Source of the DNA: Candidatus Eiseniibacteriota bacterium
GTDB taxonomy: Bacteria > Eisenbacteria > RBG-16-71-46 > CAIMUX01 > VGJL01
DNA: 64,000 nt
Assembly: GCA_041946735.1 (NCBI GenBank)
Contig: JBHGAY010000010.1
Coordinates: 64,001 to 128,000 of the forward strand
Direction: 5' to 3'
The stretch's first letter is position 1, and each line of letters starts with the position of its first letter. This document shows positions 9,443-61,293 of the stretch, one piece after another. The translations under genes and the position numbers were made by a program. The notes below the pieces were generated by a model that was not told the origin of the DNA, ran no database searches, and worked only from the letters and a program-made list of their open reading frames with translations.

Positions 9443-9457
9443 CGGCATGACGCTTGC
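9443..9457 (+). promoter_or_regulatory. Putative sigma-54 -24/-12 promoter
   Basis: CGGCATGACGCTTGC matches GG-N10-GC with TTGC; upstream of the Wzi-like gene. Confidence 0.45.
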
Positions 9458-24888: not shown

Positions 24889-25128
24889 GCCGATGGGACC
24901 TCGACCCTCGTTCGCTTCGACCGTTCGTTTCCGACGCTTTTTTGGAGACCCGGATTTCAGAACGGCGATCTCGCGGGCCCGGGAAGAGGGTGGGCGACGC
25001 TGCGCACGTAACGAGTTCGCCGGCAGCCGACATGGCAGGCTAGCGTTCGCCCCGCCGGCGGTCAACGACGGTTTGCGCCGACGATGACGGATGGATGCCG
25101 GCAGCGCCCCCCGCGCGGGACGCTGGAA

Positions 25129-25166
25129 TCATGCCGGTCACGCCAGTCATGCCGGTCATGCCGGTC
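25129..25166. repeat. 4 x 9-bp tandem repeat TCATGCCGG
   Basis: tcatgccgg tcacgccag tcatgccgg tcatgccgg tc. Confidence 0.85.
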
Positions 25167-25216
25167 CTCGCCGGCGATCCTTGACCGGTGGTGCAAGCGC
25201 AACTAGAGTGCGCGCC

Positions 25217-25987
25217 ATGGAACTCGCGAATCGAATCGTATTCGTCACGGGCGCGAGCAGCGGGATCGGGGCGGCCTGTGCCCTCGCCTTCGCCCGGGCA
25301 GGAGCGAAGGTGCTGCTCTGCGCTCGACGGGAAGACAGGCTGGACGATGTGGTGGAAAGCCTGCGTAGGACCGGGGTCGAGGCGTACGGGATCGGGCTGG
25401 ACGTGCGGGATCCGATCGCCGTCGAGACGGCGATCGGATCCCTGCCGGAGCCGTGGAAGTCGATCGACGTCCTCGTCAACAACGCGGGGCTCTCCCGTGG
25501 CCTGAGCCGCTTGCACGAAGGGCTCCTCTCCGACTGGGAGGAGATGATCGACACCAACGTGAAGGGGCTGCTGTACGTCTCCCGTGCGGTGATTCCCGGG
25601 ATGATCGAGCGGGGCCGGGGGCAGGTCATCAACATCGGCTCGATCGCGGGGCACGAGTCGTATCCCGGCGGGAATGTCTATTGCGCTACGAAGGCGGCGG
25701 TGCGCGCGCTGACGGCCGGCATGCGGATGGACTACGTCGACACTCCGATCCGCATCTCGACGGTCGATCCCGGAATGGTCGAGACGGAGTTCAGCCTCGT
25801 GCGCTTTCACGGCGACCGCGAGCGGGCCGACAAGGTGTATCAGGGGATCACGCCGCTCTCGGCGGACGACGTCGCCGAAGTCGTCCTGTTCTGCGCAACG
25901 CGTCCGGCGCACGTCGAGGTCGCGGAGGTCCTGCTGCTGCCCACCGCTCAGGCTTCCGCCACGTTGGCCCACAGGAGGAGCGGCTAG
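25217..25987 (+). CDS. SDR oxidoreductase (YdfG-like)
   Basis: TGASSGIG, NNAG, IGSIAG, YCATK, PGMVETEFS; TAGAGT -10 box 7 nt upstream. Confidence 0.92.
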   Translation: MELANRIVFVTGASSGIGAACALAFARAGAKVLLCARREDRLDDVVESLRRTGVEAYGIGLDVRDPIAVETAIGSLPEPWKSIDVLVNNAGLSRGLSRLHEGLLSDWEEMIDTNVKGLLYVSRAVIPGMIERGRGQVINIGSIAGHESYPGGNVYCATKAAVRALTAGMRMDYVDTPIRISTVDPGMVETEFSLVRFHGDRERADKVYQGITPLSADDVAEVVLFCATRPAHVEVAEVLLLPTAQASATLAHRRSG

Positions 25988-26263
25988 CGCAGCGATCGCC
26001 GCCCGCTCCTTCGCCTCGGCTGCCGGCCCAGCTACGGGCTTAGTCCCACCAAGCGCGAACAGCGGTACGACCCGGGAGGGGAAGAGCCGGGGCCGCCGTC
26101 GCGTCCTCCCCCGTTGACACCCTCCTCGCGCGGGCGGTAGGACTCTTCGTTCCTCACTCCTTCCCTGGCGAGGAGGTTGCTCCCCGACGATGCGCTGCAC
26201 ACCGAATGCGACGACGAAGGCGACGCGGCGCTGCCGGTCGCTCCCTTGCCGAACGGCCCGCCC

Positions 26264-29200
26264 ATGAAGCGCCCTGGCGAGCGTCCACGCGCGCGTCCAC
26301 GCGATCGTCTCGAGAATCTGTTCCATCGGATCCTCGAGCTCCCAGCCGAACGGCGGGAACAGGAGCTACGCGCTCTCGCGGGCGCCGAGCCGGGTCTCGC
26401 CCGCGATCTCGCCGCCCTTCTCGCCGCTGCAGAAGCGCCGACCGGCTTCCTCTCCGTCCCATCCCTCGTCGAGCGCGAAGAACGCTCGATCCTTCCCGAG
26501 CGGCTCGGGCGATACGCGGTCCGGTCAGAGATCGGAAGGGGAGCGTCGGGGATCGTCTACCTCGGTCACGATCCCGACCTCGACCGTCCGGTCGCGATCA
26601 AGGTGCTCTCCGGCCGGCATGGCCGCCCGGCCGCGGACTGGGGCGACGAGCTGCTACGAGAGGCGCGGGCGCTCGCCGGGGTCGTCCATCCGAACGTCGC
26701 CCAGGTGCACTCGATCGAGCGCCTGGAGACGGAGTACGCGAGCGGACCGGCCGCTGCCACCGGACCGCCGGCGGCGATGCTGACGATGGAATACGTCCCG
26801 GGCCGGACGCTGGCCGATCTGCTCTCGGAAGGGCCGTTCACGCTCGACCGCGCGCTCGATTGCGCGCGGCAGATCGCCGCGGCCCTCGAGACCGCGCATC
26901 GCAGCGGCATCGTGCACCGGGACCTGAAGCCTCAGAACATCCGGATCACGCCCGATGGGCTGGTGAAGGTCCTGGACTTTGGGATCGCGGGGATTCTTCT
27001 CGCGCACTCGGCGCCGGAGCCGGGCGGCGCGCGCGTCCTTTCGTCCGCAGGGGGCGGGACGCCCGGCTATATGAGCCCCGAGCAGTGCCGCGGGGAGGAG
27101 GCGGGCGCGAACGCCGACCTCTGGGCTCTCGGCGCCTTGCTCTACGAATGCCTCACCGGATCGCCCGCCATCCCAGGGACGACCGTGGCCGACCTGCTCG
27201 CCGCGAACCGCACAGGCGAGGTCGATCTGGCACGGTTGCCCGCTTCGGTGCCCGAGCCGATCGAGCGCCTGCTCCGCGCTTGTCTGGCGGTCGACCCGCG
27301 CGAGCGGGAAGGATCGGCCACGACGGTCCGCCGCCTTCTGGGGGAGGAGCTGCTCCGACTGCGGGCCGGCGCGTTCGTGAGCGAGACGAGCCGCGACCCT
27401 TACCGAGCGAGCCCGACATCACGGGCTGGACGCGCGGACGGCGCCGCCCTGCCCGTGCGCCGCGCCCGTCTCCCGCGCCCGCTCTCTTCCTTCGTCGGCC
27501 GTGAGGCCTTCCTCGAGCGGCTCGAGCGGAGCCTCGAAGCGAACCGCTTGACCACGGTCACCGGCCCGGGGGGCGTCGGCAAGACCCGGGCGTCGATCGA
27601 GGGGGCGCGCCGGGCGGAGCGGCTCTACGGCGAGCGGATCTGGTTCGTCGACCTCGCCTCGGTGCTCCATCCCGCGGATCTCGCCTCCGAAGTCGCGCGC
27701 TCCCTCGAGGTCGGGCAGTCCGCGTCGGCGGGCGACGATCGAGGGATCGCGGAGGCGATCGGGCGGAAGGTGCGCGAGCCGTCGCTCCTCCTGCTCGACA
27801 ACTGCGAACACCTCGTTGAGGCGGCGGGACGATTCGCGGCTCGGCTCCTCGACGCCGCTCCGCCTCTCGCGATCCTCGCGACGAGCCGGCAGCCGCTCGG
27901 CATTCCCGGCGAACAGGTGCTGCCGCTGCCGCCCCTCGACGCGACCGGGGGGGCGGAAGGGGTGCGCCTCTTCGTGGAGCGCGCGCAGAGCCGCGACCCC
28001 GCGTTCGCGCCCGACGCGTCGCAGCTCGACCGCGTCGCCGAGCTGTGCCGGCGCGTGGACAGTCTTCCCCTCGCGATCGAGCTCGCCGCGAGCTGCGTCC
28101 GCAGCCTTCCGCTGGAGGAGATCGAGCGCCGGATCGCCGAGGGACGGCCGCTCCCTGCCCCTTCCGGCGCGGCGTCGCCGGAGCGGCATCGATCGCTGCG
28201 CGATGTCGTCGACTGGAGCTACCGCCTGCTCTCGGGCAAGGAGCGAAGCCTCCTCCGCCGGCTCTCGATCTTCCGCGGCGGCTGCACGCTCGCGGGCGTC
28301 GAAACCGTCTGCGGCGGCTGGGACGGCATCGAAGGGTGGGAAGCCTGCGATCTGCTGGCCGGCCTCGTCGAGCGCTCGCTCGTCGAGCCCGATCTGCAGC
28401 CCGAGAGCGAGCACGCGCGCTACAGGCTCCTCGAAACGATCCGGGTCGTCGCGGCGAACCGTCTGTCCGAGCAGCCCGCCGAGGAGGCGGAGCTTCTCTC
28501 CCGGTATCTCGCGCATGCGGCGTCGCTCGTCCTTCTCCGTCCCGGGGAGAAGGGGCCTCTGCGGGGAGCGTGGGTGCAGCGAATCGAGCCGGACTATCGC
28601 AACCTGGTCCACGCGCTCGACCTCTCTCTCGAAGCGGGCCGGCTGGACCTCGCCTTCGCCATCGCCGATCCCCTGAGCTACTACTGGGTCCAGACCGGTC
28701 ATTGGACCGAGGGGGCCGGCTGGCTCGACCGCCTGCTCGAAGCCCGCCGGCCCGAGCCGTCCCTCGAAGTTCCGACGAAGGACGGAATCGAGGGCCCGCG
28801 CGAACACAAGGGCGGCGGGCGCCGCGCGCCGCACCGGGCCGATGAGATCCGCCTGCTCGCGCAGGCCGGGCTGTTGCGCGCTCTTCGTGGCCGGCTCGAC
28901 GAAGCGCAGCCGGTGGCCGACGAGGCGCTCGCACTGGCTGCCGCATTCGGCGAGCCTGGTCCGCTTGCGCTCGCGCACGAGTCGGCGGCGGTGCTGACCT
29001 ACCGCCGCGGCGACGTGGACGGCGCGCAGCGCCACTTCGAACGGAGCCTCCGGGCGTTCGAGGAGGATGGGGATCGCGGAGGAGTCGCCGTCACGATCGG
29101 CAATCTCGGGGTCGTCCAGAGCACGCGCGGGGATCATCCCGCCGCGCTTCGCTTGTATCGCCAGTATCTCGATCTCGCCCGCGAGATGCAGGACCGCCTG

Positions 29201-29716
29201 GCCGAAGCGAAGGCGCTCACGAACCTCGGCTGGACGGCGATGACGATCGGCTCCGTGGACGAGGCGCGCGGCTACCTCGAGGAGGCGCGCGCCGTCCACG
29301 AGGAGAACGCCGACCTTCCCGGCCTCGCGCAGATCCACCAGCATCTCGGGGACCTCGCCGCAGGCCAGGGAGACGTGACGAGGGCGCGCGCGCACCTGCT
29401 CGAGTCGTGCCGGCTGCGCCGGAAGATCGGCGACGAGAGCGGCATGGGAAGCGGTCTCGCTTCCCTCGCCCGCCTGGCCGATCGGGAGTCGCGCCCGCTC
29501 CTCGCGAGCGAGATCGTCAGCGGCTTGCTCGCGCTCGCGGATGCGGGCCGCTTCCCGTGCCGGCCCGAGACGCTCGCCTCGCTCCGCGAATGGGCGGCCG
29601 ATCTGGCGGGACGGATCGGCGAGGACGCCTGGCGAGAGGCGGCCGAGCGAGCCGGCGGCAAGGGGATGACGGAGCTGCTCGACCTCGCAGGCGAGGCCGC
29701 GCCGGGATCGCGATGA
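26264..29716 (+). CDS. Ser/Thr kinase - STAND (NB-ARC-like) ATPase - TPR protein
   Basis: GRGASG, VAIK, HRDLKPQN, DFG, GTPGYMSPEQ; FVGRE, GPGGVGKT, LLDNCEH, ATSR, LPLAIEL; TPR repeats; no TM segment; alternative start 26177. Confidence 0.93.
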   Translation: MKRPGERPRARPRDRLENLFHRILELPAERREQELRALAGAEPGLARDLAALLAAAEAPTGFLSVPSLVEREERSILPERLGRYAVRSEIGRGASGIVYLGHDPDLDRPVAIKVLSGRHGRPAADWGDELLREARALAGVVHPNVAQVHSIERLETEYASGPAAATGPPAAMLTMEYVPGRTLADLLSEGPFTLDRALDCARQIAAALETAHRSGIVHRDLKPQNIRITPDGLVKVLDFGIAGILLAHSAPEPGGARVLSSAGGGTPGYMSPEQCRGEEAGANADLWALGALLYECLTGSPAIPGTTVADLLAANRTGEVDLARLPASVPEPIERLLRACLAVDPREREGSATTVRRLLGEELLRLRAGAFVSETSRDPYRASPTSRAGRADGAALPVRRARLPRPLSSFVGREAFLERLERSLEANRLTTVTGPGGVGKTRASIEGARRAERLYGERIWFVDLASVLHPADLASEVARSLEVGQSASAGDDRGIAEAIGRKVREPSLLLLDNCEHLVEAAGRFAARLLDAAPPLAILATSRQPLGIPGEQVLPLPPLDATGGAEGVRLFVERAQSRDPAFAPDASQLDRVAELCRRVDSLPLAIELAASCVRSLPLEEIERRIAEGRPLPAPSGAASPERHRSLRDVVDWSYRLLSGKERSLLRRLSIFRGGCTLAGVETVCGGWDGIEGWEACDLLAGLVERSLVEPDLQPESEHARYRLLETIRVVAANRLSEQPAEEAELLSRYLAHAASLVLLRPGEKGPLRGAWVQRIEPDYRNLVHALDLSLEAGRLDLAFAIADPLSYYWVQTGHWTEGAGWLDRLLEARRPEPSLEVPTKDGIEGPREHKGGGRRAPHRADEIRLLAQAGLLRALRGRLDEAQPVADEALALAAAFGEPGPLALAHESAAVLTYRRGDVDGAQRHFERSLRAFEEDGDRGGVAVTIGNLGVVQSTRGDHPAALRLYRQYLDLAREMQDRLAEAKALTNLGWTAMTIGSVDEARGYLEEARAVHEENADLPGLAQIHQHLGDLAAGQGDVTRARAHLLESCRLRRKIGDESGMGSGLASLARLADRESRPLLASEIVSGLLALADAGRFPCRPETLASLREWAADLAGRIGEDAWREAAERAGGKGMTELLDLAGEAAPGSR

Positions 29717-30552
29717 GCGAGACGGACCCGATCGGCGGAGGCGAGGAGCAGGGCGGGACGTTCGCGCCGGACCGGGAGAGCGCGGCCGAGATCGAGCGCT
29801 ACGCGCGCGAGGTGATCGGGCGCGAGGTGATCGGGCGCGAGGCGCTGGCGCGCGAGGCGCTCGCCGCCGGTGACGGGACCGCGGGGGAGGTTGCTTCCCC
29901 GGCCGCCTCGCTCGACGCCCTTCTCCCTGCGATCTACGCGGAGATGCGCACGCTCGCCGCCTATATCCTGCGAGGCGAGGGAGTCGGCAGGACGCTCCGT
30001 CCGACCGCGCTCGCGCACGAGGCCTACCTGCGCCTCGCCCGCCAGACGCGATTCGCCCCGGAGAACCAGCGCCACCTGCTCGCCGTCGCCGCCACCATGA
30101 TGCGCCGCGTCCTCGTGGACTCGGTCCGCGAACGAAAGGCGGCGAAGCGAGGAGGCGCCGCCGAGCGCGTCACGCTGGGGCGCATGGACGAGGAGGGGGA
30201 GGGGGAGGCGTCGGCGGCGGGGGAGCGGTCGCGCGCGACCGCCGCTGTCGATCTGATCGATCTCCACCGCGCCCTCGACCGCCTCGCCGCCGAACATCCC
30301 CGCAAGGCCCGGGTCGTCGAGCTTCTCTACCTCGCCGGTTTGACGCAGGAGGAGGCGGGGAGCGTGCTCGGGATCACGGCGCGGACCGTCCTGCGCGACT
30401 GGATGTTCGCGAGGGCGTGGCTCTGGAAAGAGCTGAGCGGGGAGGATGCGGCGCGTGCGCCGCAAGATCCTCCCCGCTCGATCGAGCGGAGTGCCGGGAA
30501 CGAAGGGTCGCGGGAATCCGGCCCCATCCCGCCCCCGGTCAGTCGAGAATGA
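29713..30552 (+). CDS. ECF sigma factor, kinase-associated type (TIGR02999/ECF43-like)
   Basis: IYAEMRTLA, TLRPTALAHEAYLRL, MRRVLVD..R...AAKRGG, RDWMFARAWL; ATGA overlap with the kinase. Confidence 0.92.
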   Translation: MSETDPIGGGEEQGGTFAPDRESAAEIERYAREVIGREVIGREALAREALAAGDGTAGEVASPAASLDALLPAIYAEMRTLAAYILRGEGVGRTLRPTALAHEAYLRLARQTRFAPENQRHLLAVAATMMRRVLVDSVRERKAAKRGGAAERVTLGRMDEEGEGEASAAGERSRATAAVDLIDLHRALDRLAAEHPRKARVVELLYLAGLTQEEAGSVLGITARTVLRDWMFARAWLWKELSGEDAARAPQDPPRSIERSAGNEGSRESGPIPPPVSRE

Positions 30553-31780
30553 CGATGCGGCCGGACTTCGATCCGGACGTCGATCCGTCCCGGAGCTGAT
30601 AGAAGTAGGCGCCGGCCGGAAGCCTCCGTCCGTCGTCGTCGCGTCCGTCCCACTGGACGGCCTGGGCCCCCGCTGGCTGCACGCCATCGACGAGCGTCCG
30701 GACCCACCGTCCCTGCGCATCGTGGATCCGGAGCAGCACGGGCGCCGCTCCCGCGGCTCGGTAGCGGATCGTCGTCTCGCCTCGGGTCGGGTTCGGCCAT
30801 GCGGCGACCGGTCCTGTGGCGAGGTCCTGCGAGCCGTCGACGCCGGCAACGTCGGTCGCGGGGATGCGCGCGACGTTCACCACGAACTTGCCGATCAGCC
30901 CCGCTTGGGAAACGGCGTCGGTGTTGAGGGTGAGCATGAGCTCCGAGCCCACGTCGGACGGCTGGGTGGTCCAGGCGCCTCCATCTCCGATCCAGTACTC
31001 GTTCGAAAGGCCGATCTGCCCAAAGAGAGCCCCGTAGGGAGCTCCGGTGTGAGGCTGCGTACCGCTCACGACTCCGAGCAGTCCTTCCGGGCCGAACCAT
31101 CCCTCCGTATAGGCGGAGTTCGGCAGAGCCGGATCGCGCATGACACCGTAGGGCAGCACGACGAAGCGGTCGCCCGTGGCGGCGAAGAGCCCGGTGCCGA
31201 TCGGGAGGGTGGTGGTGCGGCTGATCGTGACCTGCGAGACGTCCGCGGAGCCGGGAGGCACGACGATGAGCGTGATCGTCACCGAACCCTCCAGGCTTGC
31301 GAGATCGGCGTCGGAGAGGTTCAGAGCGAGCCGCAGCTCCTGTCCGACGTCCGCGGGCTGGACGCTGAACGAACCCATGCGGCCCAGGAACTGATAGGAG
31401 CCGATCACGCCATTGAAGCCGCCGATCAGCGCGCCGTACGGCATGCCATCGACGATCGGCTGTCCCGTCCCGGTCCAGTTCGTCTGGCCGGCCGGGCCGA
31501 ACCATCCCTCGTCGAACCGTTCGGGAAGGGCTCCGACACGAAGGGATCCTTCTGCATAGAAGATCACCTCCTCTCCGAGCTGCGTGCCGATCAGCCCGGT
31601 CGAGAGCGGCTGTGCTGTCGACGCGTCGATCGTGACGACCCGGTGCTGTGTGTAGTCCGCGCGCGCGGGGCCGGCGGCGATGACGAGGCCGAGCGCGGCG
31701 ATGGCGACGCCCGCGCCGGCGAGAAGCGAGGCGGCCAGGGTAGCTCTCGGCTTCCGGTCCACGTTCCTGCTGGTGCTCAT
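30539..31780 (-). CDS. Secreted protein with two LecA/PA-IL-like domains and a FlgD-Ig-like C-terminal domain
   Basis: Signal peptide; two repeats of TG..G....G...EGWFGPxG...PYGAL.G...G.EL.L.LN; ends WPNP...WDGRDDDGRRLPAGAYF; AGGAGG SD. Confidence 0.8.
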   Translation of the reverse strand: MSTSRNVDRKPRATLAASLLAGAGVAIAALGLVIAAGPARADYTQHRVVTIDASTAQPLSTGLIGTQLGEEVIFYAEGSLRVGALPERFDEGWFGPAGQTNWTGTGQPIVDGMPYGALIGGFNGVIGSYQFLGRMGSFSVQPADVGQELRLALNLSDADLASLEGSVTITLIVVPPGSADVSQVTISRTTTLPIGTGLFAATGDRFVVLPYGVMRDPALPNSAYTEGWFGPEGLLGVVSGTQPHTGAPYGALFGQIGLSNEYWIGDGGAWTTQPSDVGSELMLTLNTDAVSQAGLIGKFVVNVARIPATDVAGVDGSQDLATGPVAAWPNPTRGETTIRYRAAGAAPVLLRIHDAQGRWVRTLVDGVQPAGAQAVQWDGRDDDGRRLPAGAYFYQLRDGSTSGSKSGRIVILD

Positions 31781-31812
31781 CGAAGGTTCCTCCTGCCGTT
31801 CCGGCGTCTCTT

Positions 31813-31887
31813 GCGTTGCCTGGTGGTGGGTGCCCGTGAGGGTTCGTTCCGGCGTTGCCTGGTGGTGGGCGCCCGTGAGGGTTCGTT
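31813..31887. repeat. 2 x 36-bp direct repeat (39-bp period)
   Basis: gcgttgcctggtggtggg(t/c)gcccgtgagggttcgtt at 31813-31848 and 31852-31887, one mismatch. Confidence 0.95.
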
Positions 31888-31920
31888 GGCTGCTCCGGTC
31901 GCGAGGATCGGCGGCCGCTC

Positions 31921-32886
31921 TCATTGCGGCACCCGGATCACTTCGACCTCGAAGCGGCCGTCGACGCCAGTCAAGTCGGCGGGATCGAGGTTGAGGTCGA
32001 GTTGGAGTTCGCGGCCGACGGCAAGGGTCCCCGACCGCCAGGTGCCGCCGTCGCCGATGTAGAAGTGGACCGGAGCGCCGTCGAAGTTGCCGTAGAGGCC
32101 GCCATACGGACCTTCCGGGTACGGCTGGCCTGCCCTGTTGAAGTGCGGCAGGCCGGCGGGCGTGTAGTAGGCGTCCGAGAACTGGAGGTTCGGCGATCCC
32201 TGCAAGGTCCCATAGGGCAGGACGACCCAGCGATCGCCGAATGCCGCGGTGAGCCCCGTCGGAACCGGCAGCGCCGTTCCATCCCGGATCACGATGTGGG
32301 CCATATCGGGGTAGCCGTCCTCGATGAGGAGGACCGTCACCTGCACTTGCCCCTGCAGGATCGCGAGGTCCGCGTCGGACATGTTCAGCGCAACGCGGAA
32401 CTCGTTTCCGACGTGCTGGGGCAGGAGGTGGAAGGCTCCGATTCGCCCGAGGTGCCGGTAGTTCGCGATGTTGCTCGAGAAGCCGCCGATCAACGCCCCG
32501 TATGGCATCCCGTCAACTACCGGCTGGTCGGCTCGAGTGAACCTCGTTTCCCCGGCCGGACCGAACCACCCCTCGGTCAACCGATTGGAGTCGTCGATCG
32601 TTCGCAGGCTTCCCTCCGCCAGGATGATCACCTCTCCGTTCGATGTGGCGGGGATGAAGCCGGTCGGGACGGGCTGCGTGGTCGTCGAGTCGATCACGAC
32701 GACATGGCTTTCATAGGACTGCGCGGCCGCCGGCGACGGAGCGACCGCGAGCAGGAGCGCGAGCGCCAGCGCCAGCGAGGGGCAGGAAGCGACTGCCAGC
32801 CCCCGTGGAGGGACAGCGGCTTGGTGTGTCGTGCGGGTCGCGACCTGGAGACGTCGGACCGCGGAGAGTCTATCGCGCGGGAACAT
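31921..32886 (-). CDS. Secreted protein with two LecA/PA-IL-like domains (paralogue of 30539..31780, no C-terminal domain)
   Basis: EGWFGPAG...QPVVDGMPYGALIGGF shared with the neighbouring gene; AAAGGAG SD before ATG 32886. Confidence 0.8.
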   Translation of the reverse strand: MFPRDRLSAVRRLQVATRTTHQAAVPPRGLAVASCPSLALALALLLAVAPSPAAAQSYESHVVVIDSTTTQPVPTGFIPATSNGEVIILAEGSLRTIDDSNRLTEGWFGPAGETRFTRADQPVVDGMPYGALIGGFSSNIANYRHLGRIGAFHLLPQHVGNEFRVALNMSDADLAILQGQVQVTVLLIEDGYPDMAHIVIRDGTALPVPTGLTAAFGDRWVVLPYGTLQGSPNLQFSDAYYTPAGLPHFNRAGQPYPEGPYGGLYGNFDGAPVHFYIGDGGTWRSGTLAVGRELQLDLNLDPADLTGVDGRFEVEVIRVPQ

Positions 32887-33180
32887 GGTCTTCTCCTTTC
32901 GGGCCGGATCGGGCTCGGGGCCTGCCCGTCCCGTCCTCGTCGATGTCGAACCGTCTCGATGCGCGGCCGTTTGGTGTGGTCCTCGGACCTTCGGCGCCTT
33001 CGGCCTCGTGCGGCGCCCGGCGCTTGGGTCTCGGATCTCGGGTCTCGTCCAGAAACGCGTAGCCGGGGGGCGCGGACCGACATCGAATCGGAGGAAATGT
33101 GGCGGCGATCCCGGTGGAGGAAACCGCCGCAGGAAAACGCCGCACACCGGCGCGGGAAACGGACGTACAATGCGACCGCC

Positions 33181-35910
33181 ATGAACCCAATCGATCGTCC
33201 GTCGCGTTCTCGTCCGGCTGCTTCCTCCGCCCCTCGCTTCTCGCGGCTTCTCTTTCCTCTGCTTCTGCTCCTGCTCCTGCTCCTTGCGCCCGCCTTCGTC
33301 TGGTTCGCCGGCGGCGCGGGCGCGCAGCCGGCGCCGGGCGCCGCGCCACCTGCGTCCGCCGATACGCTCGTCGTCCCCTCGTGGCTCGTGATCGGCCCTT
33401 TCCCCTCCGGCGTTCGCGAGGCGCTCGTCGATCCGATCTGGCCGGCGACGCCCTCGACGCTCGCGCCGTCGGAAGGCGACTCGATGGCCTCCTGGCTCGC
33501 GCCAGGCGGGTGGGCCAAGTGGACGCGGGTCGACGGAGAGGGACCGACGGTCAAGATGGAGTTCGCTGGCGTCGACTGGGACGGAGCGACGGGGCAGTGG
33601 GGTTTCGCGGGGATCTTGAGCGGGGCTCTCGCGTGGGGGGAACTCGATGTCCCCTCGAGCGGGCGCTTCCTCGTCGACGCGACGCGTGCCGGCACGCTCT
33701 ACGTGGACGGCCGGCGCTACCTCGGCAATCCCTACTCGATCGGGACGTTCCAGGCGCCGATCCAGCTCGCCGCCGGACGCCACACGGTCCTGTTGCGGAT
33801 CGGCGGCGCGGGACCGCGCGAGGCGAGCTTCCGCCTGATCCCGCAGGAGCACGGCGCGGCTTTGCTCGCCGCCGGCGCCACGGTTCCCGATCTGGTCGTC
33901 GGCGAGCCGCTCGACTCGTGGGGAGCGGTCACCGTCGTGAACCTCTCCGGCGAGGAGTTGCGCGGCGCCGTTCTGCGCTTCGGCGACGGCGTCCTGCTCG
34001 AGTCGGTGGAGGCGGCCGTTCCCGTCCTTCCGCCCGAAGGGATGCTGAAGGTTCCGTTTCGCGTGCGGAGCTTGCGGCCGGTGACCGAGAGCGATCGCTC
34101 CGCCGGCGGTTCCGGCGCTCGGACGATCCTCCGCCTGACCCTCGCGGACCGCGAGCTGTTCGCGGCGTGCTCGCTTCGCGTGCGCTCCCCGCGGGAATCG
34201 CGGCGCGTCACCTTCCTCTCCTCGATCGATGGCTCGGTGCAGAAGTACGCGGCCCTGCCTCCGTCGGTCGAATCCTCGGCCGAACCGTCGGGCGACCCCT
34301 CGGCCGATCCGTCGGCCGGCCCCTTCGCGCTCCTTCTCTCCCTGCACGGGGCGAGCGTGGAACCCGAGCCGCAGGTCGACTCCTACTCGCCGAAGGCCTG
34401 GGCGTACGTCGTCGCTCCGACGAACACCGGCCCGTACGGGTTCGACTGGCAGGATTGGGGACGCAGGAACGCGATCGAAACTCTCGAGAACGTCCTCGCT
34501 CGCTTCCCGATCGATCCCGACCGCGTGATGCTCGTCGGGCACTCGATGGGCGGTCACGGCACGTGGCACGTGGGGCTGTCCGATCCGGGCCGTTTCGCGG
34601 CGCTCGCCCCCAGCGCGGGATGGGGAAGTCTCGGCACCTATACCCCGTTCACCCTGCGCGAAGACGTCCTCGCAGGGGATCCGCGGTTGCGAGTCCTGTG
34701 GGAGCGCGCGATCGCGCCGGACAACACGCTCGCGTTCCTCGGAAACGCGCGAGGGCTGCCGGTCTTCGTCTTGCACGGAGGCGCCGACGACAACGTCCCG
34801 GTCTTCCATGGACGGATGCTCGCCCGCCGCGCGGCTGCCGCGGGAGCGCGCGTGGTCTACCGGGAGGTGAGCGGTCAGGGACACTGGTGGGACGCCTCCG
34901 ACGCCCCCGGCGTCGACTGCGTCGATCTCCCCGAGATGATGGAGTTCCTGCGGGCGCAGCGGCGCGACACCGCTCCAGACACGATCACGCTCGCGACGGC
35001 CGACGTCGGCACGTGCGACCGTTCCCACTGGCTGCGGATCGTGGAAGGCGATCGCCCGTTCTCGCGGGTCGAGGTGAGCGCGCGCCGGACCACGGGGGGC
35101 GCGAGCGGCACGGACGGCGCGGGCGGCGCCACCCGCGGCTTCGCGATCGAGACCCGCGGCGCGCGAGCGATCGCCATCGATCCCGCCGGCCTCTGCTCGC
35201 CGGGCAGGATCCCGCTCACGATCGACGGCGCGAGCTTCACGCCCGACTGGCGGGCCGGCGAGATCCTCCTCGCGCGAGGCCCGAAGGGATGGTCGATCGC
35301 CGGCGGCCGATCGAAAGACGAGCAGGACGTCCGGCGGCGCGCCGCGATCAAGGAGCCGTACTTCGAGCCGTTCCTTCTCGTCTACGGGACCGCCGGGACC
35401 GGCGCGGAGACGGAAGCCGCGCGCCGCCTGGCGGTCCTCGACGCCCAAGGCTGGCTCCTGCGTGCGGACGGATACGCCGAGGTCATGGCCGACCGGGACG
35501 TGCCCGCCTCGCTTCTCGCCTCGCGCAACCTGATCCTCTACGGCACGCCGGGGACGAACGCCCTCCTCGAGCGCATGGCGCCGAGCCTTCCGATCCGGGT
35601 CGGCCGCGACGGAGTCGCGCTCGCCGGCCGGCGCTACCCGTCGGCGCCCGGGGATCCGCTCGCCGTCCGCTTCGCGTACGTGAACCCGCTTGCCCCGGAG
35701 CGCCTCATCGAAGTGATCGCCGGGACCGACGTCGAAGGGCTCGAGCTGGCCGCCGCGTCGAACCCGTGCTACTCCAGCTCCGGATATCCCGACTTCGTCG
35801 TCTACGGCAAGGAGGCGCGCCGTTCGGGCTGGGGCGGGATGCGCGCCGCCGGCTTCTTCGACCGCGGCGGGACGATCGACGCCTCGAGCGAGGACGTCTA
35901 CTTGCGCTGA
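33181..35910 (+). CDS. Exported S9-like alpha/beta-hydrolase (peptidase/esterase)
   Basis: Signal peptide; LSLHGA, GHSMGG nucleophile elbow, HGGADDNVP, GHWW; TACAAT at 33166. Confidence 0.85.
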   Translation: MNPIDRPSRSRPAASSAPRFSRLLFPLLLLLLLLLAPAFVWFAGGAGAQPAPGAAPPASADTLVVPSWLVIGPFPSGVREALVDPIWPATPSTLAPSEGDSMASWLAPGGWAKWTRVDGEGPTVKMEFAGVDWDGATGQWGFAGILSGALAWGELDVPSSGRFLVDATRAGTLYVDGRRYLGNPYSIGTFQAPIQLAAGRHTVLLRIGGAGPREASFRLIPQEHGAALLAAGATVPDLVVGEPLDSWGAVTVVNLSGEELRGAVLRFGDGVLLESVEAAVPVLPPEGMLKVPFRVRSLRPVTESDRSAGGSGARTILRLTLADRELFAACSLRVRSPRESRRVTFLSSIDGSVQKYAALPPSVESSAEPSGDPSADPSAGPFALLLSLHGASVEPEPQVDSYSPKAWAYVVAPTNTGPYGFDWQDWGRRNAIETLENVLARFPIDPDRVMLVGHSMGGHGTWHVGLSDPGRFAALAPSAGWGSLGTYTPFTLREDVLAGDPRLRVLWERAIAPDNTLAFLGNARGLPVFVLHGGADDNVPVFHGRMLARRAAAAGARVVYREVSGQGHWWDASDAPGVDCVDLPEMMEFLRAQRRDTAPDTITLATADVGTCDRSHWLRIVEGDRPFSRVEVSARRTTGGASGTDGAGGATRGFAIETRGARAIAIDPAGLCSPGRIPLTIDGASFTPDWRAGEILLARGPKGWSIAGGRSKDEQDVRRRAAIKEPYFEPFLLVYGTAGTGAETEAARRLAVLDAQGWLLRADGYAEVMADRDVPASLLASRNLILYGTPGTNALLERMAPSLPIRVGRDGVALAGRRYPSAPGDPLAVRFAYVNPLAPERLIEVIAGTDVEGLELAAASNPCYSSSGYPDFVVYGKEARRSGWGGMRAAGFFDRGGTIDASSEDVYLR

Positions 35911-35962
35911 GACCCGAAGCGGTGCGCCGCGCGCGGCCCAGCGCCGCGCGTCGCGCGGCCGC

Positions 35963-37690
35963 TCAGCGGGGCGAGCGGCCGAACTCGAGCGACGGGTCGG
36001 GGAACTCCACCTGCGGCAGGATCCGCAACACCGTGCTCGTCATGACGGAGAAGGTGGGTGGCGCCGGCTCGTCGGTCCGCCAAGCGACCTCGATCCGAAC
36101 CGGGGGCGAGGAGGCCTTCCTCGAGCCGAGAAGCAGGCCGAAGCCGGCGCCGGCTCTGGCTCTCTCCGTATCGATCGATCCGTCGCGCGAAGGAAGAGCC
36201 GCATCGACGAAGGCGTTTGCGCCGATGCCGGTCCACAGCACCTCCCAGCCGCTCCAGATCCTCTCCTCGAGCGTCAGCAGGAGGTAGTCCCTCACCTCGA
36301 ACTCACGCACGGGGAAGCCGCGCAGGCCGGTTTCGGTGCCGAGGTAGTGCACCATCGTCGGCTCGCGCTCCCTGCCGACGTTGCCGAGGAGTTGGAGGAT
36401 CGTCAGCGATCTCGCGAACGGCTGCCACCCGATCGAAGCGAGGCCGACGACGTTGCGAGGCCCGAGGCTGCGGTCCGACTGCACGAAGAGGCTCCCGGTC
36501 GCCTCGACCGAAAGGCCGATCTTGTGCCAAGGGTAGGCGCCCGCCGCGAACCGGGTCCGTATTGCGAAGGCGCGGTCCGGCTCGTCGATCCCCTCGAGGT
36601 TCGGACCGAACGCCACCTGGCCCGACCATCCCACCGGGACGTCCTCCACGTTGCCGTAGCGGAGCAGGTTCTCTCCTTGGACGAAGCGGCGCTTCATCCA
36701 TCCGAGGAAGACGAGCGGGCCGCGGAAGCGATGGTCCTCGAAGCGTGGCGGCGGCGCATATCCGGGCTCGATCGCCTCCGGACTGCCTCGGGGGCGCATC
36801 CGGCGGTCGACCCATCCGGCGCCGATCGCGACTTTGCTTGCGCCGCCCGGATAGCGGCCGATGTACCCTCCCCATTCCTCGGACCGGTAGGGAGAGTTGC
36901 CGATCTCCGTCCCGCGATCGAAGAAGCGTTGCTGGCCGCGCGCTGCGATCCCGAACGTTCCCCATCCGATGTGATCGAACACCGTCTCGACGGGACGAGT
37001 GACGTACGCGCTCGCCTGGTCCGCATCCTGGAAGTCGTAGTAGACGATCGTCGCGACGGCGCGGGTGCGAAACGGCCGCCAGAGGTCCGCTCCGATCAAG
37101 GCTCCGGGCTGATCGCTCGACACGACCTGTGTCCAGCGCAAGGCGTGGCCGGATCCGAGCAGGTTCTTCTCGCGCACTCCGAATGTCCACTCCGTCAGCC
37201 CGGCCTTTTTCTCGAACGACGCATCGAGACCGAGCGTCCAGAGGTCCTGCGTACGTACGACGACCGTCCGGCCGCTGTCGGTCGGCACTGCCCGCACGCT
37301 GGCCCATTCGAAGATGCCGCGGCGGCGCAACAATCGCTCCGACTCCTGGAGTCGCAGGGAATCGGACGGGCCTCCCTCATGAACCAGGATTTCGCGACGC
37401 ACCACCGATTCGCGGGTGCGCGTGTGCAGATGGTTCGCAATCCGTGTCAGCTCGCCGAGGACGGTGGAGGTCGTCTCCGGGAACACGGGCAGTCGCTCGA
37501 TCCGCACATGCTCGGCGACCGTTGAATCGGCCGTTTCGGAGAGCGCGCGGGCGTCAGCGGGGCTGCCGTCAGCGGCGTCGCTTCCGCGAGCGGCGGCGCG
37601 GGCGAGGGACGGGGAGACGAGGGGCGCCGGGAGCGCCGCGAGCCCCGCCAGTGCCGCGAATGCCAGGAGCGCCCGGCGCTTGACCGTCAC
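35963..37690 (-). CDS. Omp85/BamA-TamA-like outer-membrane protein with POTRA domain
   Basis: TRESVVRREIL, ESERLLR, TQDLWTL, EKNLLGSG, GLRGF, EER, FVD motifs; start approximate. Confidence 0.75.
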   Translation of the reverse strand: MTVKRRALLAFAALAGLAALPAPLVSPSLARAAARGSDAADGSPADARALSETADSTVAEHVRIERLPVFPETTSTVLGELTRIANHLHTRTRESVVRREILVHEGGPSDSLRLQESERLLRRRGIFEWASVRAVPTDSGRTVVVRTQDLWTLGLDASFEKKAGLTEWTFGVREKNLLGSGHALRWTQVVSSDQPGALIGADLWRPFRTRAVATIVYYDFQDADQASAYVTRPVETVFDHIGWGTFGIAARGQQRFFDRGTEIGNSPYRSEEWGGYIGRYPGGASKVAIGAGWVDRRMRPRGSPEAIEPGYAPPPRFEDHRFRGPLVFLGWMKRRFVQGENLLRYGNVEDVPVGWSGQVAFGPNLEGIDEPDRAFAIRTRFAAGAYPWHKIGLSVEATGSLFVQSDRSLGPRNVVGLASIGWQPFARSLTILQLLGNVGREREPTMVHYLGTETGLRGFPVREFEVRDYLLLTLEERIWSGWEVLWTGIGANAFVDAALPSRDGSIDTERARAGAGFGLLLGSRKASSPPVRIEVAWRTDEPAPPTFSVMTSTVLRILPQVEFPDPSLEFGRSPR

Positions 37691-38009
37691 GCGACGCGCA
37701 GGGAGTCGCAGGGGATCGCGCGCGCGGACCGCGATCCCCGGAGGAGGAGGACGCGAGCCGGCGAACCGGCGTTCGTGGAGGATCGCACCGATTGCCCGCG
37801 TGCGGCCGGTCGGCTCTCGCAGGGCCACGAAGCGGAGGATAGCAGAGCCGCTCGACCGGGGCTTCTTCAGAGGCGACGCCCGGGCCCCTCTGGCCGGCAG
37901 GGCGGGCGATTCGATATCCTTGATGCGATTCGTTCGGCCGCTTTGCGCCCGGAAGAACATTCACCGAAGACGCCGCCAAGGGCGCTCCCCGCCCGAAAGG
38001 AGAAACCGC

Positions 38010-58426: not shown

Positions 58427-58996
58427 GTGGGGACCGAAGGCTTCCGGGAATCGCTTCGACGAATCCGGGATTCCGGAGAGCCGACAATGCACGCCCTCTT
58501 CTCCCAGCTTTACGCGGAGATCCGGCGGCAGGCGCGACGCCAGATGCGTGGCGAGGGAGGCGGAAAGGACCTCCAGGCGACCGAGCTGGTCGGGGAGGCC
58601 TACCTCCGGCTGCGTGAGGCGCGCGGTGTCGAATGGCAGGACGAGGACCACTTCCTGCGCACCGTCGCCCGCGCGATGCGGCGCGCGCTCGTCGACGAGG
58701 CGCGCAAACGGGCCGCAGAGAAGCGCGGCGGGCCGGCCGCGCGCCAGGTTGCCTACTTCACCCTCGGCGCTCGCACACGACTCGCCCTCGACGACCTTCT
58801 CGCGCTCGAGGATGGGTTGCAGAAGATGTCCTCCGGACCGGGCCAGCTTCCCCGCGAGGCGAAGGTGATCGAGCTGATCTTCTTCGCCGGAGCGACCAAG
58901 GAAGAGATCGCGCGCCTGCTCGAGATCGACGTGCGGCAGGTCTATCGCGACTACCGGCATGCCCGGATCTGGCTGCGCCGGGAGATCGGGTTGTGA
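58427..58996 (+). CDS. ECF sigma factor, kinase-associated type (TIGR02999/ECF43-like)
   Basis: LYAEIRRQA, LQATELVGEAYLRL, MRRALVD.AR...AEKRGG, RDYRHARIWL; alternative ATG at 58487. Confidence 0.9.
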   Translation: MGTEGFRESLRRIRDSGEPTMHALFSQLYAEIRRQARRQMRGEGGGKDLQATELVGEAYLRLREARGVEWQDEDHFLRTVARAMRRALVDEARKRAAEKRGGPAARQVAYFTLGARTRLALDDLLALEDGLQKMSSGPGQLPREAKVIELIFFAGATKEEIARLLEIDVRQVYRDYRHARIWLRREIGL

Positions 58997-61293
58997 GCGA
59001 AGCGGAGAGGAACCTCCCCGAGGAGATCTTCAACGATGCGCTCGAGCTCCCGAGCGAGGAACGCGTCCGGTTCCTCGAGCGCGCCTGCGCGGGGGACCCC
59101 CGGCTGCGCGAGGAAGTCGAGTCCTTGCTTCGCATCGCGGAGGACGATCCCTCTCTTCTCGCATTCCCCGAGCCGGCGCCGTCGGATGGCGAACCGTTGC
59201 CCGAGAAGATCGGCCGCTACCCGGTCCTCGACCGGTGCGGCGAAGGAGGGATGGGAGTCGTCTACCGCGCCGAGGATCCGCTGCTCGGACGCGCCGTCGC
59301 GCTGAAAGTCCTTTCCGTCCCGGGACTCCTGGCCCGACTCGACTCGACCGCCGGGCGCAAGGCCCGCGAGCGGCTCGAGCGCGAGGCGCGCCTGCTCGCG
59401 GCGTTGAACCATCCGAACCTGGCCACGATCCACGCGCTCGAGTACGTCGGCGGGTCGCCGGTGCTCGTGATGGAGTTCGTCGAGGGACGGACGCTTCAGG
59501 AGATCCTCTCCTCGGGAGAGGCGACCGCAGAGGAACGGTTGCGCATCTGCCGCGGGATCGCGCAAGGGATCGGAGCGGCGCACGAGCGGGACATCGTCCA
59601 TCGGGATCTCAAGCCGGCAAACGTGATGGTCGGTCCGGGCGGAGTGATCAAGGTTCTCGACTTCGGGATCGCGGCCGTGGCGGAGCTTACGCTTTCGATG
59701 GCGGGGGAGGGAGCATGTTTTCCTGCCAACGATCGAAGACCGCAAGCTCCCGGCCGTATCGGGCCGATCGGGGAGGGGACGGCCCGGGCGGGCACCCGAG
59801 GGTACATGAGCCCGGAGCAGCAGGCAGGACATCCGGCCGATCTTCGTTCTGATCTGTGGGCCTTCGGGAGGATCATCTGCGACTGCTTCGAAGGTTCGGT
59901 GACGCGCGGTCCGGAGGGCCGGCCCGCCGTCCGCTTCGCCGGCCCCTCGCTTCCCGGCCGCGCGCTCCCCGGGCGTTCGCTGCCCGGCCGCGCGCGCCGC
60001 CGGCTCGAGCGGCTCGCTGCGCGTTGCCTCGAGGAGGATCCGACGCGACGTCCGGCGACGATGGCGGAGGCCGGGCGCGAGATCGACCGCGCGATCGACG
60101 AGGTTCGCCGCGCGCCGGCGATGCGCCGTCTCGCCCTTGTCGCGCCCGCTGCGTTGCTGATTCCCCTCGCCTTGCTCGGCGTGCGCCTGCGCGAGAGGGA
60201 GCATGAGCGTCCGATTCGGGCCATCGCTGCCGGGCGCACCGTCGAGACACACTACAAAGACGGCCGCGCCCGCGTCTTTCTTCCGCCCGACTCGGTCGCT
60301 CAAGCGCTCGACAGCGCTTACGTCGCGGCGACCGCGCGATCCCCCATCATCGTCGCGGTGACGGAGGAGCAGGAGGAGACGGACGACTTCCTGCTGTTCT
60401 GGGATGCCCATGGCAAACTGCTCCGCTGCATCCCGTCGACCCGGGACACCCCCTTCGACGCCGTGGCCGAGGAAGGGTCGGAGCTCTACTGGCGGAAGTG
60501 GTATCGCTCGATCCATCCGCCGTCGAAGCGGCATGACACCTTCGACGTGACCGAGGGGGCTCACTACTACCCCTCCACGCTCCGCCGCTTCGCGATCGCG
60601 TCCTCCGAGATCGAGGAGACGTATCGCCTCTACCACGCGGGCCATGTCAACTCCATCGTCTACGCGCCGTCGTTCGACTCGACGGCGACGTGGCTCTGGA
60701 TGACCGGCCGTGTGCGGGATGGTGGACTGCTGCGGGAGATCGCGGGCGGGGTGGAGCAGAACACGCACTTCCTCGCATGCTTCGAAGACTCCGCTCGCGG
60801 CACCGAGTACTTCCCCGCCTTCGCGCCACCTTCGGCGGCGTTCCTCCACAACCATCCGGAGGGAGTGCGGCCGGCCGTGCCGATCCTCTACTTCGTGATC
60901 CGAGGCTTTCTCTCCGACGGCGACAGCATCCTATGGGACAGGAGCCCTTCCATGCTGATCCACGAGGTGGTGCGCGCCGGGCCGCAAGATCTCGAGGTGC
61001 TGCTGATGGGCGCGATCCGCCTCGACCTTCATCGTCCGGGGACCGGAAGGGTCGAGGTGCAGGCGTCGACGAGCGGCCAGGCCCACCCCGCGATCGCGCG
61101 CAGGGCCCGGGCGCTCGGCGTGGACGCCGAGGAAGCGGTTCGCCGCTTCCTCGCGGACAGCGTCATCGTGCTCATCGCTTCGGCGCCGGGGCTCGAGGTC
61201 ACGGGAGACTTCACGGACCGGCGTGGCGCTGTTCCGACCCAATGGAACGGGGCGCTCCCCGGCTGGACGGAGGATCGCCCCGTTTCTCGGTAG
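58993..61293 (+). CDS. Transmembrane Ser/Thr kinase with unrecognised extracytoplasmic domain
   Basis: GEGGMGVVY, VALK, HRDLKPAN, DFG, GTRGYMSPEQ; one TM (LALVAPAALLIPLALLGV); GTGA overlap with the ECF gene. Confidence 0.92.
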   Translation: MSEAERNLPEEIFNDALELPSEERVRFLERACAGDPRLREEVESLLRIAEDDPSLLAFPEPAPSDGEPLPEKIGRYPVLDRCGEGGMGVVYRAEDPLLGRAVALKVLSVPGLLARLDSTAGRKARERLEREARLLAALNHPNLATIHALEYVGGSPVLVMEFVEGRTLQEILSSGEATAEERLRICRGIAQGIGAAHERDIVHRDLKPANVMVGPGGVIKVLDFGIAAVAELTLSMAGEGACFPANDRRPQAPGRIGPIGEGTARAGTRGYMSPEQQAGHPADLRSDLWAFGRIICDCFEGSVTRGPEGRPAVRFAGPSLPGRALPGRSLPGRARRRLERLAARCLEEDPTRRPATMAEAGREIDRAIDEVRRAPAMRRLALVAPAALLIPLALLGVRLREREHERPIRAIAAGRTVETHYKDGRARVFLPPDSVAQALDSAYVAATARSPIIVAVTEEQEETDDFLLFWDAHGKLLRCIPSTRDTPFDAVAEEGSELYWRKWYRSIHPPSKRHDTFDVTEGAHYYPSTLRRFAIASSEIEETYRLYHAGHVNSIVYAPSFDSTATWLWMTGRVRDGGLLREIAGGVEQNTHFLACFEDSARGTEYFPAFAPPSAAFLHNHPEGVRPAVPILYFVIRGFLSDGDSILWDRSPSMLIHEVVRAGPQDLEVLLMGAIRLDLHRPGTGRVEVQASTSGQAHPAIARRARALGVDAEEAVRRFLADSVIVLIASAPGLEVTGDFTDRRGAVPTQWNGALPGWTEDRPVSR

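Follow-up and report, generated by a model that had tools for sequence, protein, structure and literature searches.

The question raised by a 64-kb window (the whole stretch of DNA that was analysed, with a G+C content of ~70%) from an uncultured, soil-type member of Candidatus Eisenbacteria (Eiseniibacteriota) is whether a cytoplasmic sensor kinase can switch on a sigma factor of the extracytoplasmic function (ECF) type, and whether that sigma factor then transcribes the secreted-protein genes lying next to it. Four genes are concerned: gene A, encoding a Hanks Ser/Thr kinase fused to a STAND NTPase and tetratricopeptide repeats (TPRs); gene B, encoding an ECF sigma factor; and genes C and D, which converge upon B and encode secreted proteins with the PA-IL/LecA (lectin) fold. 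What is new here is the conserved kinase/ECF/lectin arrangement, together with a strictly spaced promoter motif ahead of the lectin genes. The proposed activation of the ECF43-like sigma factor by the cytoplasmic STAND kinase is well grounded by homology, whereas the proposal that sigma B reads the lectin promoter is partly supported: linkage is seen in three of the five genomes, the promoter is of the ECF type, and the related loci encode no other sigma factor. The coordinates of the features are collected in Table 1.

The related loci were obtained by one profile scan of genome contigs using an 11-sequence alignment of protein D, which yielded four loci (L001-L004), and their synteny was examined by tblastn with 15 window proteins and by Pfam on the called open reading frames (ORFs). 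The named relatives of the window proteins, as well as three of the four loci, derive from metagenome-assembled genomes of Candidatus Eisenbacteria (Eiseniibacteriota). The kinase/ECF/lectin block is present in the same convergent arrangement in two of these loci, viz. L002 and L004. The first of them contains a D-like gene, a C-like gene, a convergent ECF gene (58% identity) and a kinase-STAND-TPR gene (48% over 1151 residues), and its kinase and ECF ORFs share, at 11574-11577, the same 4-nt overlap as A and B, whose ATGA junction the earlier note had correctly described as an overlap for translational coupling. The second contains one C-like gene, a convergent ECF gene (43%) and a kinase-STAND-TPR gene (39%). 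The 3' ends of the ECF and C-like genes overlap by 11 nt in L004 and are separated by 53 nt in L002; in the window the 14-nt overlap claimed earlier is also present, the stop codon of C (TCA on the + strand) being at 30539-30541 and that of the ECF gene (TGA) at 30550-30552. Among the ORFs scanned in L002 and L004, no sigma factor other than the neighbouring ECF is encoded. A lectin tree based on 8 two-domain cores and rooted at its midpoint shows three well-supported clades (the single-copy proteins of L004 and L003, the D-type and the C-type), and with this root linked loci are found on both sides of the deepest split. Indirect hints of further linkage come from exact coincidences in longest-contig size between the D-like protein P0004 and the kinase P0035 (10576), the D-like protein P0018 and the ECF P0161 (17757), and the C-like protein P0029 and the ECF P0188 (24429). 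The flanks of the related loci have not retained the other window neighbours that were tested (among them the short-chain dehydrogenase, the response regulator and the S9 hydrolase), the one exception being a weak match (29% identity) to the 665-aa BamA-like ORF, located about 8 kb away in L004.

The upstream regions of the first lectin gene in all five loci have in common the bipartite motif RTGTC-N19-CGCGTY. Within the 64-kb window its copy ahead of D is the sole exact match on either strand (chance expectation 0.34), and each of L001-L004 has a single copy, located ahead of the lectin gene in sense orientation. When all combinations of a 4-mer, a spacer and a 5-mer were enumerated, this was the single motif common to the five upstream regions, and none of 500 dinucleotide-preserving shuffles yielded any shared bipartite motif. 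The element is non-palindromic, with an invariant 19-nt spacing and a fixed orientation, and the distance from its end to the start codon ranges from 66 to 167 nt. Its form is, by sequence comparison, that of ECF promoters such as those given for the ECF41 (TGTCACA/CGTC) and ECF42 (TGTCGAT/CGTC) groups (PMC7826278). The motif lies inside the region 32887-33180 that the earlier note had proposed for a reporter. Of the extent given there for the whole module (26264..33082), the last 196 nt (32887-33082), past the start codon of D, are noncoding and constitute 5' leader and promoter. A relaxed search of the window allowing 1 mismatch gave 5 matches versus 11 expected, none of them upstream of a gene, and no further motif-bearing members of a regulon were found in the window.

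The product of gene B matches TIGR02999 with 163.7 bits (cut-off 126.15) and the Pfam family Sigma70_ECF (PF07638) with an E value of 4e-41 (141.4 bits versus 21.1), and it contains the sequence RPTALAHEAY at residues 96-105, in agreement with the suggestion that it is a TIGR02999-type ECF retaining the threonine of a 'PTAL.HEAY' motif. As described in the literature, the ECF43 sigma factors possess a Sigma70_ECF domain without the acidic DAED motif that contacts beta' and have no anti-sigma factor beside them (PMC13147305; PMC8999054; PMC7826278). Their sigma2.2 region carries instead a threonine (consensus QTTA, conserved in 88%; PMC13147305), and phosphorylation of this residue by a neighbouring Hanks kinase supplies the missing charge (PMC13147305; PMC8999054). 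In B the corresponding segment is RPTA (residues 96-99), which has no D or E; the acidic motif is absent, and the residues P97, T98, A99 and L100 do not vary among the 42 sequences aligned (B and 41 relatives). Further, no anti-sigma domain was detected among the neighbours scanned with Pfam. The sequence thus characterised supports the assignment of B as a probable ECF43-like sigma factor of the kinase-coupled type, with Thr98 as its acceptor residue. In comparison to its orthologues, B has an N-terminal insertion, an acidic linker insertion and a 35-residue C-terminal tail, the last of which is the source of the 14-nt overlap with C. A tandem repeat encoding REVIGREVIGREALAREALA sits in the N-terminal extension and is lacking in the orthologues. 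A predicted complex of kinase residues 1-375 with ECF residues 60-245 scored 0.27 against a mark of 0.32, without controls, and is not used here as evidence.

The kinase domain of A is intact, with its Gly loop, VAIK, HRDLKPQN, DFG and GTPGYMSPEQ motifs, and the residues K113, H218-R219-D220, D238-F239-G240 and T266 are invariant in the 19 sequences aligned; its Walker A and Walker B motifs are likewise invariant across 19 orthologues. The earlier note had described A as a kinase without a transmembrane (TM) segment and of NB-ARC-TPR make-up. The former statement is borne out by a hydropathy check, in which no membrane segment was found in A: the highest 19-residue Kyte-Doolittle mean is 1.48, within the DFG strand of the kinase, versus 2.13 for the TM segment of kinase 2 (see below) and 2.3-2.7 for the signal peptides of C, D and E. 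The latter is upheld by the fold, the Walker motifs and the TPRs, but Pfam NB-ARC (PF00931) itself has no match on A at E<=0.01, and the P-loop matches to AAA_22, nSTAND1 and AAA_16 are all under their cut-offs. NB-ARC is above the Pfam cut-off in the orthologue P0047 (29.5 versus 23.5) and in a paralogue encoded in L004 (26.6). A predicted structure of residues 380-1150, comprising the nucleotide-binding/oligomerisation module (NOD) and the TPRs, has a pLDDT of 88, and helical repeats extend in it to about residue 1144. The best Foldseek match of this model is the STAND-TPR protein 6mfv (E 1e-14, 766 columns), and it also matches Apaf-1, CED-4, Avs3, ZAR1, Sr35, Roq1 and NRC2 with a probability of 1.00, the TM-score with Apaf-1 (1z6t) being 0.49 (target-normalised). 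Because the NOD-TPR model matches 6mfv, Apaf-1, CED-4, Avs3 and the plant NLR resistosomes, the description of the NOD of A as an NB-ARC-like or NLR-like STAND module is justified at the level of the predicted fold. With the same residues as query, a search over 8000 candidates recovered 7273 proteins at E<=1e-10; among the 120 matches listed, the module is found fused to SARP, adenylate cyclase, LuxR, XRE and kinase domains, and it is predicted to be a generic sensor. About 19 of the matches listed are probable orthologues of A (42-49% identity), of which 18 are fused to a kinase and one (P0049) is without a kinase domain; for the set of 19 orthologues of the whole gene the range is given as 40-52%. 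Membership in a known defence system was considered and ruled out, as PADLOC matched nothing in A outside its kinase domain.

A second ECF/kinase pair, of the canonical kind, is present in the window. Its sigma factor, ECF2, carries QATE, the motif reported for EcfK (PMC13147305), and its kinase 2 is a single-TM receptor kinase with a large extracytoplasmic domain matching no known family. The stop codon of ECF2 overlaps the GTG start of kinase 2, and the gene order, with the sigma factor preceding the kinase, is the reverse of that of A and B, as had been remarked earlier. Ahead of the kinase domain of A there is an N-terminal helical motif that is common to all four ECF-adjacent kinases compared (A, kinase 2 and those of L002 and L004). 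Its pattern, ..hF..hhELP.E.R...L.......P.L..EV..LL....E...FL, is shared by soluble and membrane-bound kinases alike, and it is not recognisable in the kinase-NB-ARC-TPR paralogue of L004, which has no adjoining ECF. A conserved N-terminal extension of 83 residues is described for the kinase PknS (PMC13147305). The helical motif may be a sigma-docking element.

Proteins C and D show 47% identity over 275 residues and both have hydrophobic, signal-like segments at their N-termini. Protein D consists of a signal peptide and two PA-IL/LecA-fold domains without a sorting domain, whereas in C the signal peptide and two such domains (~42-307) are followed by a FlgD_ig domain of the type A sorting kind (337-395) associated with the type IX secretion system (T9SS). 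The model of D (pLDDT 85) comprises two beta-sandwich domains; its best Foldseek match is PllA (5ofz; E 9.5e-5, 24% identity), and the N-domain of EclA and LecA/PA-IL are also matched, with a TM-score of 0.78 for LecA (target-normalised; root-mean-square deviation 3.0, ~128 columns). No direct match to PF07828 was observed for C or D at E<=0.01, nor for 31 family members at E<=10, and profile searches of the PDB with whole-protein and single-domain alignments gave no PA-IL match. The single-domain profile of D does reach PF07828 proteins, 7 of the 23 weak matches scanned exceeding the cut-off, and hhalign aligns the D-family domain to PF07828-bearing domains with 97.4% probability (E 1.4e-11, 117 columns). 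In terms of predicted fold and distant homology it is therefore right to call C and D LecA-like, and the earlier description of a pair of secreted LecA-like paralogues can be retained. The family is tiny, with 31 clusters of D relatives in a set of 5.8 billion proteins and 64 representatives for the single-domain profile at E<=1e-3 among 1.84 billion.

Binding of sugars in the manner of LecA is a different matter. In LecA, Asp100 and Asn107 of the 'D..NNSG' segment are ligands of galactose and calcium (PMC12684298). In the hhalign alignment, C and D have A/G/S-L/M/V at the 'dNsG' columns of the PA-IL proteins and M/L/T, within the stretch LN[MLT]S.ADLA.L.G, at the column of Asp100; the LecA numbering was here mapped provisionally, through the PllA/PA-IL alignment and the LecA sequence. 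As these calcium and galactose columns appear to hold small or hydrophobic residues in both proteins, a LecA-type sugar-binding activity of C and D appears doubtful. The sorting domain of C (TIGR04183, 26.7 bits versus a cut-off of 23; FlgD_ig, E 2.2e-13) makes it probable that this protein is displayed on, or released from, the cell surface. FlgD_ig/T9SS-type C-terminal domains are found in four of the window proteins, which points to a lineage that may rely heavily on this export tag.

With regard to the gene models, ORFs were filtered by codon-position G+C and the start codons were inspected. The ORF of A spans 26177..29716, its likely start being the ATG at 26264. No terminator-like sites were found between the convergent genes B and C, an Rfam scan of 25000-36500 gave no match, and a sigma70 promoter scan of 25900-33300 found nothing. 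By eye, TTGACA-N18-TAGGAC is seen at 26114-26143 upstream of A, and TATAAT (L002 14922-14945) and TTATACT (L004 15303-15325) lie 8-10 nt before the kinase start codons; these are weak leads. The sequences suggest that the kinase transcripts of L002 and L004 may be leaderless. The spacer between D and C measures 140 nt in the window, a 39-nt tandem repeat lying within it, versus ~23 nt in L002. In L004 a second kinase-NB-ARC-TPR gene (5211-8747), the paralogue noted above, is 30% identical to A and lies upstream of the lectin promoter, so that the lectin gene is placed between two STAND kinases. A 334-aa ORF (8760-9764) is found directly upstream of the same promoter; it was considered as lectin-like and rejected (hhalign probability 0.9%). 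Between the kinase stop and the ECF start of L004 (~11880-12011) there is a run of GACGCATG-type tandem repeats, as well as an inverted repeat whose 21-nt arms flank a 12-nt loop and which encloses an upstream ATG candidate; the start of this ECF is more likely at 11771.

Table 1. Coordinates of the features described in the text (window positions, unless a related locus is named).
Feature	Position	Strand	Basis or remark
Response-regulator gene, upstream of A	25065-24463	-	Pfam
Short-chain dehydrogenase (SDR) gene, upstream of A	25091-25987	+	Pfam
Gene A, Hanks Ser/Thr kinase + STAND NTPase + TPR, 1150 aa	26264..29716	+	Pfam, model, orthologues
Helical motif RLENLFHRILELP... at the N-terminus of A, before the kinase domain	26306..26344	+	Comparison of ECF-adjacent kinases
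N-terminal motif regions	26306-26440; 58993-59150; L002 14921-14760 (-); L004 15302-15150 (-)		
Kinase catalytic domain of A, residues 84-350	26513..27313	+	Pfam Pkinase, E 1.7e-42
STAND nucleotide-binding/oligomerisation module, approx. residues 414-735	27503..28468	+	Motifs, model, Foldseek
Walker A GPGGVGKT, residues 434-441	27563-27586	+	Motif
Walker B LLLLDNCEH, residues 508-516	27785-27811	+	Motif
TPR array, LGN/Pins-like, Pfam residues 903-1059	28970..29440	+	TPR_12 (E 2.9e-22)/TPR_MalT
ATGA, overlap of kinase stop and ECF start	29713..29716	+	Sequence
Gene B, ECF sigma factor (ECF43-like), TIGR02999/Sigma70_ECF, 279 aa	29713..30552	+	TIGRFAM, Pfam
Tandem repeat within gene B, 15-nt unit, 4.2 copies	29802-29864	+	Encodes REVIGREVIGREALAREALA
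Thr98 codon, EcfP/EcfK phospho-acceptor position	30004..30006	+	Motif RPTALAHEAY
14-nt overlap of convergent 3' ends, ECF gene and gene C	30539..30552		Sequence
Gene C, secreted, 413 aa	31780-30539	-	Pfam, TIGRFAM, hydropathy
Tandem repeat within the D-C spacer, 39-nt unit, 1.9 copies, 97% match	31813..31887		Repeat scan
Gene D, secreted, 321 aa	32886-31921	-	Start ATG 32886, good Shine-Dalgarno sequence
ATGTC-N19-CGCGTT, candidate ECF-type promoter, 167 nt upstream of the D start codon	33083-33054	-	Shared motif
Gene E, S9/alpha-beta hydrolase with signal peptide, divergent from D	33181 (or 33097)-35910	+	Pfam
665-aa ORF, no Pfam family	35963-37960	-	Weak partial BamA match (TIGR03303, E 6.6e-8)
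Sortilin/BNR protein; LVIVD beta-propeller protein; unknown protein; C (all with sorting domain)	12353-15133; 17769-20096; 37416-39680; 30539-31780		
ECF2, motif QATE	58427..58996	+	TIGR02999, 155 bits
Kinase 2, single-TM receptor kinase, start GTG 58993	58993..61293	+	Pfam, hydropathy

On the basis of these results we propose that the locus is a regulatory module of four genes, which would work as follows. Kinase A and sigma B would be produced, translationally coupled, from one transcript that is probably driven by sigma70 and not autoregulated. By analogy with EcfP/PknT and EcfK/PknS, sigma B would be inactive as made, its sigma2.2 sequence RPTA having no acidic residue. The TPR and NOD portions of A would sense an intracellular ligand or protein, upon which a nucleotide-dependent oligomerisation would bring the kinase domains together, and these would autophosphorylate and then phosphorylate Thr98 of sigma B. 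The phosphorylated sigma factor would bind core RNA polymerase and transcribe the D-C operon from RTGTC-N19-CGCGTY, and D and C would be exported by the Sec route, C with its T9SS-type sorting domain. The phosphorylation, the oligomerisation mechanism, the choice of the sigma factor that reads the promoter, and the ligands of C and D are the parts of this scheme that we infer, and the chain as a whole, from the STAND-TPR kinase through Thr98 of sigma B to the D-C operon via the conserved promoter, may equally well hold or fail. A more specific form of it, in which a cytoplasmic cue (be it a metabolite, a protein that is damaged or foreign, or, as in Avs/NLR immunity, a component of a phage) acts through the STAND-TPR kinase and Thr98 upon a dedicated operon of two genes for secreted or surface PA-IL-fold proteins, with the N-terminal motif serving for sigma docking, is put forward tentatively and is somewhat unlikely to be right in all its parts.

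A number of observations weigh against the proposed chain. In L001, which has D-like and C-like genes (60% each), no ECF or STAND kinase is present within 10 kb on either side, and L003, a 3.5-kb contig, contains neither an ECF nor a kinase gene, the convergent genes next to its C-like gene being unrelated ones. Because these two loci are unlinked, the sigma-to-promoter step is weakened; linkage of the lectin genes is not obligatory, and there the sigma factor would have to act in trans. Of the earlier proposal that an NLR-like sensor acts through a sigma factor upon the adjacent secreted genes, the type of sigma factor, the soluble STAND kinase and the secreted PA-IL/LecA-fold proteins are supported, and the candidate promoter of the lectin genes (five of five loci) lends it new support. 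The synteny check that the earlier note had proposed came out mixed, in that linkage of the lectin genes to the pair is seen in L002 and L004 and fails in L001 and L003. Further, no copy of the motif lies ahead of the kinase-ECF operons of the window and of the related loci, which fits a sigma factor controlled post-translationally and not by autoregulation; however, with no autoregulatory site the usual way of assigning a promoter to a sigma factor is lost. Genomes of this kind carry many ECFs, and in the window itself ECF2 is also a member of TIGR02999. For ECF43 the predicted promoter has 'GTC in -35, CAG in -10' (PMC7826278), and the candidate promoter, with TGTC at -35 and CGCGT at -10, agrees with it at -35 only. 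No phosphatase or other partner was found nearby in the Pfam scans of neighbours, and as the T51A variant of EcfK is still functional (PMC13147305), the threonine need not be the sole switch. The main rival explanation holds that the kinase-STAND/ECF pair is a genuine phospho-switch with its regulon elsewhere, that the lectin promoter is read by another ECF, and that the adjacency in the three genomes reflects inherited gene order devoid of function. It accounts for the retention of the lectin genes and motif in L001 and L003 without the pair nearby, for the lack of a motif copy at the kinase-ECF operon and for the presence of ECF2, and promoters of the TGTC/CGT type are used by several ECF groups (PMC7826278). 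We nevertheless regard it as unlikely, given that the block survives at 39-48% kinase identity with both flanks replaced, that linked states lie on both sides of the deepest split in the lectin tree, and that no further sigma factor is encoded in the L002 and L004 ORFs scanned.

The remaining alternatives concern the motif, the kinase and the gene overlap. That RTGTC-N19-CGCGTY is the site of some other regulator or an element of a leader RNA, C and D being expressed from a housekeeping promoter, would agree with its variable distance from the start codon; against this stand the non-palindromic, bipartite form of the element, its invariant spacing, its constant location ahead of the first lectin gene and in sense orientation, the empty sigma70 scan and the absence of Rfam matches, and this possibility is very improbable. 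It is also quite improbable that the STAND-TPR kinase serves as a general regulator in the cytoplasm, or as an NLR for conflict or defence, with other substrates, the ECF being controlled via its extensions or through linker phosphosites. The fusion of the NOD-TPR module to SARP, cyclase, LuxR and XRE outputs, in a family of thousands of proteins, and the lineage-specific insertions of sigma B speak for such a role, as do reports that Hanks kinases usually have multiple substrates and that in EcfK, whose T51A variant functions, linker sites matter (PMC13147305). It is countered by the ATGA coupling, the conservation of the pairing in L002 and L004, the coincidences in longest-contig size that include kinase and ECF relatives, the invariance of the acceptor threonine with acidic residues absent, and the restriction of PADLOC matches to the kinase domain. 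Lastly, the convergent 3' overlap could itself be regulatory, through antisense interference in either direction between the kinase-ECF operon and C, for example by read-through that damps lectin expression, in place of activation by the sigma factor at the promoter. Overlaps exist in both the window and L004 with no terminator-like site between the window genes; but L002 has a gap in this place, the overlap in the window stems from the C-terminal tail peculiar to its ECF, and the conserved promoter would be left unexplained, so that little credence can be given to this explanation.

The significance of the locus lies in the fact that sigma factor activation by direct Ser/Thr phosphorylation has been established only recently, and has been studied with membrane receptor kinases only, viz. 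in EcfP/PknT and EcfK/PknS. In a literature search no paper was found on the pairing of an ECF with a soluble STAND-type kinase, nor on Eisenbacteria sigma factors, although the kinase survey of the primary EcfP study may already list such cases. The present locus offers a compact and conserved case in which the sensor is predicted to be a soluble NLR-like STAND protein, and as one small candidate regulon with a sharply defined promoter adjoins it, the whole chain could be rebuilt in a heterologous host. If the proposal involving a cytoplasmic cue is true, an 'extracytoplasmic function' sigma factor would be wired to an intracellular NLR-like receptor, and an inside-out route from a cytoplasmic alarm to the remodelling of the cell surface would be conserved in a candidate phylum; if the link between sigma B and the promoter fails, what remains is an ordinary, though unusual-looking, ECF43-like pair next to unrelated secreted proteins. 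The PA-IL/LecA fold is in addition extended, within an uncultured phylum, to a tiny, divergent family of tandem-domain proteins that may have a different ligand.

The closest known systems are EcfP/PknT of Vibrio parahaemolyticus and EcfK/PknS of Xanthomonas citri, in which an ECF43 sigma factor is activated by its cognate Hanks kinase (PMC13147305; PMC8999054). The window pair resembles them in its Sigma70_ECF/TIGR02999 sigma factor, in the adjacent kinase gene and in that no anti-sigma factor was found, and the replacement of DAED with retention of the threonine is seen throughout, as RPTA in B, STTA in EcfP and QATE in EcfK and ECF2. In these systems the kinase gene is at +1, 87.8% of the ECF43-linked kinases having one TM helix and extracytoplasmic TPRs and about 12% no TM helix (PMC7826278), and PknS is itself a one-TM kinase with extracytoplasmic TPRs (PMC13147305). 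In contrast, the gene of kinase A is at -1 with an ATGA overlap, its product has no TM segment, and its TPRs are cytoplasmic and placed behind a STAND NTPase; the host is also not a proteobacterium, and the candidate promoter differs at -10 from the ECF43 prediction. A further comparison is provided by PknK of Mycobacterium tuberculosis, which has a long AAA/MalT-like C-terminal regulatory region. PknK, a Hanks kinase that is either soluble or associated with the membrane, has the transcription factor VirS as a phosphorylation substrate (PMC9045387), and A would resemble it as a soluble kinase controlling transcription by phosphorylating a regulator, whereas the putative substrate here is a sigma factor from the same operon. 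With the STAND-TPR protein 6mfv, Apaf-1, CED-4, the plant NLRs and the Avs proteins, A shares the predicted fold of residues 380-1150 and the conserved Walker A and B motifs; however, it carries a Hanks kinase as effector at its N-terminus, with a sigma factor, and not a caspase, nuclease or pore, as the presumed output. Finally, both halves of C and of D share their beta-sandwich fold with LecA of Pseudomonas aeruginosa, PllA of Photorhabdus and the N-domain of EclA, whereas C and D consist of tandem domain pairs behind a signal peptide, C with a T9SS-type tail, and the 'D..NNSG' positions of LecA appear to align in them with non-polar or variable residues.

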